NCBI RefSeq assembly: GCF_020524035.2
Contig: NZ_CP129013.1
Location: 1,143,822-1,167,821, forward strand
Length of the DNA: 24,000 nt
From: Bacillus carboniphilus
GTDB lineage: Bacteria > Bacillota > Bacilli > Bacillales > JAIVKR01
Reading direction: 5' to 3'
Below, in pieces: positions 23,269 through 23,777 of the stretch. The translations under genes were made by a program, and so were the position numbers. The notes under the pieces are model-generated. The model did no database searches, had not been told where the DNA came from, and saw nothing but the letters and a program-made list of their open reading frames with translations. Each line of letters opens with the position of its first letter. Position 1 is the stretch's first letter.

Positions 23269-23455
23269 AATAATCACTCCTTAATTATAACAAAAAAAGA
23301 TTTTTAAAAAATGCACCCTATTCTACTTTCATTTATTTATATTCTCTTCTAGTAAAGATATTCTAATAGGTGCTAAAAAAAATTGACCATCTATTCAAAC
23401 ACTGTACTACATTTTAGCATAGTTGTCTTTTTCAACAAAACTTAAGACACTACAA

Positions 23456-23765
23456 GTGCGTGTTCAAAAAGTAGGGAAAAAAGGACGCTGAATAGAAAAG
23501 CTGAAGCCCTTTGCTCACATCCGACCAGCATAAGGCGAACATAACGTGAAGGTGTTCCTTCACTAAATGTTTGACTTATGACCTCGAGGATGTAAGGGCT
23601 GAAGCTAGACAAGAACGAGGCGGTCTGCTTAAGGAACACAGGCTAAGTACAGCCACGTCGCGAGAGCAACGCCTGCGCTAGCCCGTCCTGGGCGTCGAAG
23701 GAGCGGAAAAGCAAACCAACAAAGTTATTCAACCGACATTTTTTTGGGACTTTTTGAACAACCTC
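23456..23765. mobile_element. MITE-like element, longest (310-bp) copy
   Basis: Perfect TACAA duplication (23451-23455 and 23766-23770). Termini GTGCGTGTTCAAAAAGT and reverse-complemented GAGGTTGTTCAAAAAGT match at 14/17. It contains modules found separately in the other three copies and in 10837-11184. Confidence 0.85.
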
Positions 23766-23777
23766 TACAACAAATCT

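Follow-up and report, generated by a model that had tools for sequence, protein, structure and literature searches.

Four repeats within a 24,000-nt stretch of the Bacillus carboniphilus genome (35% G+C; the whole stretch is called the window here) are very probably copies of a high-copy, non-autonomous DNA transposon family, i.e., MITEs (miniature inverted-repeat transposable elements), that is widespread in Bacillales. All four complete copies lie on the + strand, have conserved termini in common and are flanked by 5-nt repeats. A first-pass annotation, made from the letters of the window alone, had described the same four copies as a non-autonomous, MITE-like family; their sequences and positions match, and this view is now backed by the statistics of target duplications, by empty and filled insertion sites, and by in-silico excision of one copy from dfrA.

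The copies in the window and the parts of the reference copy are as follows.

23456–23765, + strand: reference copy, 310 nt; left end, ~130-nt inserted block, Bacillaceae-1 module, right module
23451–23455: left target-site duplication of the reference copy, TACAA, identical to 23766–23770
23456–23493, + strand: left terminal inverted repeat of the reference copy, ~38 nt, with the highly conserved 16-nt core GTGCGTGTTCAAAAAG
23627–23694, + strand: Bacillaceae-1 RNA module (Rfam RF01690) within the reference copy, oriented like the element; 42.7 bits versus a gathering score of 35
23728–23765, + strand: right terminal inverted repeat of the reference copy, ~38 nt; its terminal 19 nt are GGACTTTTTGAACAACCTC
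23766–23770: right target-site duplication of the reference copy, TACAA, 7 nt before the ilvD stop codon (23778–23780)
19894–20047, + strand: canonical ~155-nt copy, 154 nt; TTATA/TTATA at 19889–19893 and 20048–20052
14291–14409, + strand: short copy, 119 nt; TAGAA/TAGAA; followed after 18 nt by the start codon of a small ylaI-like open reading frame (ORF)
12765–12971, + strand: 207-nt copy; TTATA/TTAAA; 53 nt upstream of a ylaJ-like gene
12880–12947: weak Bacillaceae-1-like module in the copy at 12765; 21.3 bits, under the threshold

Copies in the window

As had been claimed, the copies share a left module of ~37 nt and a 19-nt right terminus; both are far beyond chance. The left module is found with at most one mismatch at 12765 and 23456, and with a 1-nt indel at 14291 and 19894, where it can be aligned but is skipped by an ungapped search; the number of chance matches expected in the window is 0.00. 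The right terminus has four + strand matches with at most one mismatch, the chance expectation being 0.02. The tips GTGCGTGTTCAAAAAGT and GAGGTTGTTCAAAAAGT form an inverted repeat with 14 of 17 positions matching, a recomputed value identical to the annotated one, and this repeat continues imperfectly to ~27–38 nt. All four window copies are retrieved by a profile hidden Markov model whose training copies come largely from other genera, e.g., the copy at 19894 with E = 5.6e-38. The flanking 5-mers, TTATA/TTAAA, TAGAA/TAGAA, TTATA/TTATA, and TACAA/TACAA, are as annotated; three of them are exact 5-bp duplications, and the fourth agrees at four positions out of five.

The gene set of the window, ctaC-ctaB-ctaA-pyc-ftsW…thyA-dfrA…ilvD, consists of housekeeping genes, and no transposase is present among the window ORFs, in agreement with the first-pass annotation. 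The DfrA encoded in the window is 100% identical to the B. carboniphilus protein. One copy is situated just upstream of each of the ylaJ-like and ylaI-like genes and is co-oriented with it, while one antisense copy is found at each of the 3' ends of dfrA and ilvD. The distance between the reference copy and the ilvD stop codon, previously given as 11 nt, is actually 12 nt. The location of all four copies on the same strand is probably due to chance.

Distribution and size classes

The family is not peculiar to B. carboniphilus but spans Paenibacillaceae and several Bacillaceae-type genera. A scan for GGACTTTTTRAACAAMCTC in one genome per species yielded at least 120 loci; all locus counts given here refer to the matches listed, which include two to three chance matches (Nostoc, Bacteroidota). 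The right end was thus found in at least 120 loci from ~65 assemblies and at least 14 genera of Bacillales. Among the matches listed, Paenibacillus constitutes the majority of hosts, the others being Cohnella, Oceanobacillus, Lentibacillus, Gracilibacillus, Virgibacillus, Radiobacillus, and Pseudalkalibacillus, as well as Priestia abyssalis, Fredinandcohnia, Neobacillus, Niallia, and members of Bacillaceae. More than 100 loci of other genera carry the 19-nt right end unchanged, and end cores of 16–19 nt are kept across more than 90 copies. In 92 cases, there is upstream of the right end a left end that differs from GTGCGTGTTCAAAAAG at no more than three positions, and in most of the others the left end has diverged further; where no left partner is obvious, the right end belongs to a diverged or truncated copy beside ordinary genes. 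On a single 2.7-Mb replicon of Paenibacillus cellulosilyticus, the element was found in 31 places (blastn against the plasmid collection).

In Bacillaceae-type hosts, the lengths cluster at ~155 nt, and in Paenibacillus they do so at ~179 and ~216–218 nt. At the extremes are minimal forms of 35–77 nt, with little beyond the two ends, and the longest copy, of 635 nt. The copy at 19894 aligns over its full length with the 155-nt copies of a Bacillus metagenome-assembled genome (MAG) and of Gracilibacillus at 75–80% identity, which identifies the ~155-nt form as the unit that is conserved; the conserved form in Paenibacillus has ~179 nt. Rather than being the master, the 310-nt copy is the ~155-nt form expanded by inserted blocks. 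Accordingly, the mosaic interiors reported in the first-pass annotation do contain the modules it described, whereas its explanation by deletion from a longer master does not hold, as it is the ~155-nt form that is conserved.

Two observations illustrate the dynamics of individual copies. A 40-nt internal block (AGCTTATGCTTCCGATG.GCGTTTTTTCAAAACGCT.CAG), which also occurs in loci L036 and L117, is the difference between the orthologous copies L116 2168–2380 and L083 ~5165–5350, the flanks of which are 96% identical; since the block differs between near-identical genomes, the gain or loss of internal modules is rapid. In Paenibacillus oryzae, three tandem element copies (L064 1048–1437, - strand) lie 185 nt apart, and all are then followed by the same flank, TCTAAAATGAAAG, so that they result from tandem amplification and not from independent insertions.

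Target duplications and insertion polymorphism

Target duplication was analyzed in 94 two-ended copies, the four from the window included, with shuffled partners as a control. Exact 5-nt direct repeats flank 52 of the 94 copies, compared with a mean of 5.6 and a maximum of 16 upon shuffling, and the direct repeat extends to 6 nt in only one copy. The per-position agreement of the flanks amounts to 79–83 copies out of 94 in the 5-nt register versus 21–53 in shifted registers. The duplicated 5-mers vary (TATAA, TTAAA, TTTAA, TAAAA, TACAA, TAGTA, and others), and the reconstructed target logo is a weak palindrome, C|TWNWA|G.

Empty orthologous sites, a kind of evidence that the first-pass annotation had asked for, are present among close Paenibacillus relatives. 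In the argS-S8 protease-rpoE-pyrG region, compared with Paenibacillus aceti (PyrG 96% identical), L116 and/or L083 hold copies at three intergenic sites that are empty in the P. aceti loci L132–L135. Downstream of rpoE, the empty site of P. aceti reads GAC-TAAGA-GAGAAAAC, strain D2_2 has GAC-TAAGA-(33-nt mini element)-TTATA-GAGAAAAAC, and a related MAG contains both the mini element and a full copy of 179 nt. In the argS/S8 and pyrG/response-regulator spacers, copies are present in the D2_2 and MAG genomes only and absent from P. aceti. A degenerate reverse-oriented copy just upstream of the pyrG ribosome-binding site is also present in D2_2 and the MAG, and not in P. aceti.

In B. carboniphilus, the right end of the copy at 19894 forms the last seven codons and the stop codon of dfrA (- strand), the protein ending in …YKRLFKKS. 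In-silico removal of this copy together with one TTATA yields a DfrA ending in …FLVYKRNRT, followed by a stop codon, which is like the ends of homologues such as …VYERKR. The insertion has thus replaced the C-terminus of DfrA.

Interior fold and covariation

The interior of the element has a conserved fold. In the 179-nt class (26 copies), the consensus comprises 46 pairs in seven helices, and 98.0% of the cells are paired versus 90.3% in shuffled data. In this class, 17 pairs and 78 cells are changed on both sides, versus 21.2±4.1 cells in shuffles (none of 500 reaches the observed value), and sliding the partners by 1–3 columns, as a control, leaves 30–45% paired. The 155-nt class, including the window copy, has 48 pairs, 18 of them compensatory, and the two terminal repeats of the window copy have changed in concert (GTTTAAAAAG/CTTTTTAAAC). 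In the central hairpin, 5'-GGA-X-CGGA-GCGUA…UACGU-GAG-Y-ACC, the X:Y position is occupied by G:C, C:G, A:U, and U:A. The forward-strand consensus folds at -38.2 kcal/mol versus -17.3 kcal/mol for the reverse complement, and a further comparison gave -45.6 versus -36.2 kcal/mol; G·U pairing is common and A·C pairing uncommon. The window copies fold as closed rods with paired ends (-104.8 kcal/mol and z = -4.3 for the 310-nt copy; z = -3.5 for another one).

These features might be taken to indicate that the repeats are primarily a functional structured or cis-regulatory RNA maintained by selection, with mobility being incidental or absent. Strand-specific covariation, the four Watson–Crick pairs at one position of the central hairpin, a conserved purine-rich internal loop (CGGA/GAG), the Rfam Bacillaceae-1 modules inside some copies, and two window copies situated in 5' leaders in the orientation of the downstream gene are all in line with such a role. 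We nevertheless consider this interpretation highly improbable for several reasons. Firstly, the 5-bp duplications vary in sequence, presence or absence differs between near-identical flanks, and one insertion is within the coding end of dfrA. Secondly, a conserved RNA occupying orthologous sites in distant genera would, according to the first-pass annotation, speak against a mobile family; instead, copies in different genomes and genera occupy unrelated loci, with shared flanks in only three locus pairs of the 120 listed. Thirdly, there is no preferred orientation with respect to neighboring genes (28 copies co-oriented, 24 antisense, 19 divergent, 14 convergent) or to replication as judged by GC skew (50/49). 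Finally, the reference copy lacks the central hairpin, the 35–77-nt copies lack the core entirely, and the core matches no Rfam family.

An intermediate possibility is a transposon-borne structured RNA, in which the core with its CGGA/GAG loop and exchangeable Bacillaceae-1 units would act at the RNA level on neighboring genes. While distinctly doubtful, it would, if true, mean that protein-binding or mRNA-stability modules are installed beside genes and that transposition spreads regulatory RNA across Bacillales; the orphan Bacillaceae-1 motif would then be partly explained as mobile cargo. A group II intron remnant, considered in view of the GTGCG start, was rejected because of the size, the duplications, and the lack of Rfam intron hits.

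Bacillaceae-1 modules

Bacillaceae-1 (RF01690) has been proposed to be a trans-acting RNA with a homodimeric protein as a possible binding partner (Weinberg et al., 2010). It is a 67-nt two-hairpin unit with RUCCU loops, and it occurs inside the reference copy and many other family members, as a single or a tandem unit. Among the element segments in the window, only 23627–23694 reaches the covariance-model threshold of 35 bits, and no RF01690 hit falls within the copies at 14291 and 19894. No Rfam family matches the ends or the core. Hence the first-pass annotation, which called the family unannotated, was right with respect to the ends and the core and wrong with respect to segment 23627–23694. 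The element as a whole is not a member of RF01690; rather, Bacillaceae-1 is an optional module.

In other genera, Bacillaceae-1 is located inside copies singly or in up to three units, in either orientation relative to the element. Twelve of 13 hits are inside an element, in loci that had been chosen for containing elements, and two hits apparently outside elements turned out to be inside copies with slightly variant ends. The original RF01690 alignment (~96 rows, with flanks) contains the exact 10-nt terminal core in few rows, all of Oceanobacillus iheyensis, one of which is a complete copy flanked by TAGAA/TAGAA. The suggestion that Bacillaceae-1 is simply a piece of this element is therefore rejected as a general explanation, as few of the ~96 rows fit it. 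The module also occurs without element ends in the window itself:

10869–11128, + strand: three-unit Bacillaceae-1 array with modules common with the elements and without terminal repeats

The units of this array score 56.6, 44.6, and 25 bits, and the spacer at 10944–10975 resembles the right internal module of the element (CATGAG…AAACCA.AAAG). The array is related material and not a bounded copy.

Proposed mechanism of transposition

In this MITE family, each copy is bounded by imperfect ~38-bp inverted repeats, whose outer 16–19 bp (5'-GTGCGTGTTCAAAAAG … GGACTTTTTGAACAACCTC-3') are near-invariant across genera. According to the mechanism we propose, a transposase supplied in trans would bind both ends, make 5-bp staggered cuts in the weakly palindromic target and join the element there, and repair would then duplicate the central 5 bp. 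A dimeric transposase with DDE-type cut-and-join chemistry that would act in trans is suggested by three features, namely, a duplication of exactly 5 bp, a palindromic target, and inverted ends that are conserved. Inside the element, compensatory substitutions on one strand keep the conserved rod- or Y-shaped core of a non-coding, modular interior, and optional blocks at fixed points, including one or more Bacillaceae-1 units inserted either way, produce the size classes from ~35 nt (ends only) to 635 nt.

Neither an autonomous element nor a transposase having such ends was found in the loci, plasmids, and viral contigs searched, so that mobilization in trans is an inference. None of the 120 listed loci has an ORF or a transposase between the ends. 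Ends separated by 0.4–7 kb and having matching flanks were seen only in L116, around the argS…pyrG housekeeping genes, and in two long non-coding copies. A blastn search of 72,556 plasmids with whole elements and a 35-nt end returned Paenibacillus replicons and chance matches only, with no insertion sequence (IS) among them, and the viral contigs yielded one genuine copy and three chance hits inside genes. Thus, an IS with matching ends and its own transposase, for which the first-pass annotation had suggested a search, was present neither in the loci listed nor in the plasmid collection or viral contigs.

This lack of an autonomous partner in the loci, plasmids, and viral contigs searched is one of several points that weigh against the MITE interpretation. 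Some duplications have decayed (one mismatch in 25 of 92), including that at the rpoE site, TAAGA/TTATA. The empty sites come from Paenibacillus only, and the nearest homologue of B. carboniphilus DfrA is just ~62–65% identical. The pair counts described above depend on consensus structures that were derived from the same alignments used for counting. Lastly, strong strand-specific covariation is more than a transposase needs, and it is seen here with no orientation bias.

Candidate transposases and known repeat families

The Tn3 family is the best lead for the transposase, although a lead and not a result. On that account, the elements would be Tn3-family derivatives (TIMEs), whose ~38-bp ends are bound by a Tn4430-like TnpA and which insert replicatively with a 5-bp duplication. 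Tn4430 of B. thuringiensis is reported to generate 5-bp duplications and to have a weak 5'-CTnnnAG-3' target signature (bioRxiv 10.64898/2026.05.30.728999), to which the logo reconstructed here is identical. TIMEs, IS101, and Tn4430 resemble our family in the 5-bp duplication, exact here, in AT-rich targets, in inverted repeats of ~38 bp, which ours reach, and in long stem-loop folds, which are known for Tn3-derived MITEs (PMC4133298). In B. carboniphilus, the left end also bears a modest resemblance (p≈0.002 by shuffling) to the Tn4430 inverted repeat in its inner half (…GGAAAAAA..ACGCT.AAG). The sequence of the Tn4430 repeat was verified in 180 plasmids of the B. cereus group, beside a DDE_Tnp_Tn3 gene fragment, and Tn4430-like transposons are present in Paenibacillus.

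Several observations make a Tn3 origin rather unlikely nonetheless. The ends start with GTGCG/GAGGT and not GGGG, the inner …ACGCTAAG signature is absent in most lineages, so that the GGGG…ACGYTAAG type of end is missing here, and the Paenibacillus ends are not significantly similar to those of Tn4430 (p = 0.17–0.40). In P. xylanexedens, which hosts the element, the Tn4430-like transposon has the canonical GGGGTCCCGCC…ACGCTAAG end. TIMEs are typically single-copy, which has been attributed to transposition immunity (PMC4133298), whereas copies of the present family are numerous and tightly clustered, being dense, adjacent, or tandem: four in 24 kb of the window, three in L064, and, in L116, a mini element adjoining a full copy. 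A TnpA gene between GTGCGTGTTCAAAAAG…CTTTTTGAACAACCTC ends was not seen. A second possibility, likewise doubtful, is that a novel transposase would be involved, possibly an atypical Tn3-like one without target immunity and with non-GGGG ends.

Some Tn4430 relatives encountered in this comparison deserve a description of their own. In the transposon of P. xylanexedens (L130 3259–6553), TnpI is truncated and TnpA is broken up into a DUF4158 and a DDE_Tnp_Tn3 ORF; judging from this gene organization, the transposon is probably inactive. Its end is the canonical inverted repeat GGGGTCCCGCCAACATTTTAACGAAAATATACGCTAAG. Perfect 38-bp Tn4430 repeats in B. cereus-group plasmids (L126 5587–5624 and 12142–12179; L128 5501–5538) adjoin cargo genes of an ordinary kind (nucleoside hydrolase, DUF2716) and have no transposase in their vicinity, suggesting solo ends or non-autonomous Tn4430-derived units. 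Of four plasmid regions with the Tn4430 repeat that were examined, three have no transposase gene.

The closest described analogue of the family is bcr1 of the Bacillus cereus group, with which the first-pass annotation had also compared it. The bcr1 repeats are ~155 bp long, have 5-bp direct repeats and non-conserved positions, are transcribed, and fold as RNA into a cruciform-like structure with compensatory changes (PMC3184786; PMC3446304); they have been described as confined to the B. cereus group and as linked to a TTTAT motif (PMC6542083). Like bcr1–bcr3 (group A repeats), which are non-autonomous, MITE-like, variable in position, and often located in untranslated regions, the Bacillaceae-type canonical form is ~155 nt long and has 5-bp repeats and covariation. 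It is however very unlikely that the window repeats are members or direct relatives of bcr1–bcr3. The latter are group-restricted and associated with TTTAT, which is found in none of the 52 perfect duplications here, whereas the present family occupies TWNWA targets in multiple genera, with no B. cereus-group genome among the 120 loci listed. Blastn of the 155-, 179-, and 310-nt forms gave no match in B. cereus-group plasmids, which are reported carriers of bcr1; the separation of the two families thus relies on their descriptions and on this plasmid search. The likeness to bcr1 noted earlier stands as an analogy only, with no similarity in sequence to these plasmids.

The strand-specific fold, and the minimal copies that are simple hairpins, could also recall REP/REPIN-like hairpins moved by a single-strand Y1 transposase (IS200/IS605-type RAYT). 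REP/REPIN-RAYT systems produce no target duplication and usually show a replication-strand bias. In contrast, the duplication here is an exact 5 bp, the GC-skew bias is absent, and there is no GTAG/CGTC-type tag, which makes this explanation hardly credible.

BOX, ERIC, and Correia/nemis repeats are small and non-coding, have inverted ends, and form size variants by means of optional modules at fixed points. Repeats of S. pneumoniae (BOX), Enterobacteriaceae (ERIC), and Neisseria (Correia/nemis) are thus similar to the present family in being modular, non-coding, and RNA-folding. They differ from it in sequence, which is unrelated, in hosts, in a duplication of TA or none as opposed to 5 bp, and in the Rfam-motif cargo found here. 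Folding as RNA upon co-transcription has been predicted or shown for BOX, ERIC, and Correia-type repeats (PMC3184786).

Other features of the window

Apart from the complete copies and the array, the window contains one isolated end, which is probably a remnant:

8727–8745, - strand: solo right end with two mismatches and without a left partner

Both ends of the element carry an outward-facing TTGAAC (-35-like) hexamer. In 12 of 85 copies, no more than 30 nt separate the right end from a ribosome-binding site with a start codon, versus 5 of 85 at the left end; a right-end example is 14410–14430 in the window, before the ylaI-like ORF.

A third small repeat, AAGAAAAGCGnAAGCnnCCGTTTAGCG, occurs at 10835–10866, 19016–19047, and 22283–22314. 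Each of its copies is positioned directly 3' of a stop codon and is followed by a terminator-like hairpin, and the first one precedes the Bacillaceae-1 array. Two genes of the window are each divided into two overlapping ORFs, namely, a DegV-like gene (17209–18061; 146+144 aa) and a hemolysin-III-like gene (18366–19014; 133+86 aa), which suggests frameshifts, pseudogenes, or sequencing errors.

Significance

MITEs as a kind are already known, and the present family is a new one. It is abundant in many Bacillales genomes and missing from Rfam; its terminal and core sequences did not occur in the searched literature, and a 2024 survey of prokaryotic MITEs contains no specific description of it. 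With the ends and the C|TWNWA|G target known, copies can be masked, rewritten gene ends such as that of DfrA can be spotted, and false calls of small RNAs can be avoided. The copies are natural insertion-polymorphism markers for strain typing in Paenibacillus and halophilic bacilli. In some lineages Bacillaceae-1 travels as mobile cargo in either orientation, which bears on the question of whether it is a trans-acting RNA. A 19-nt terminus that is identical across bacterial families raises the question of which transposase drives the family, and a fold kept by compensatory changes on one strand, despite insertion in either orientation, raises the question of what preserves it.

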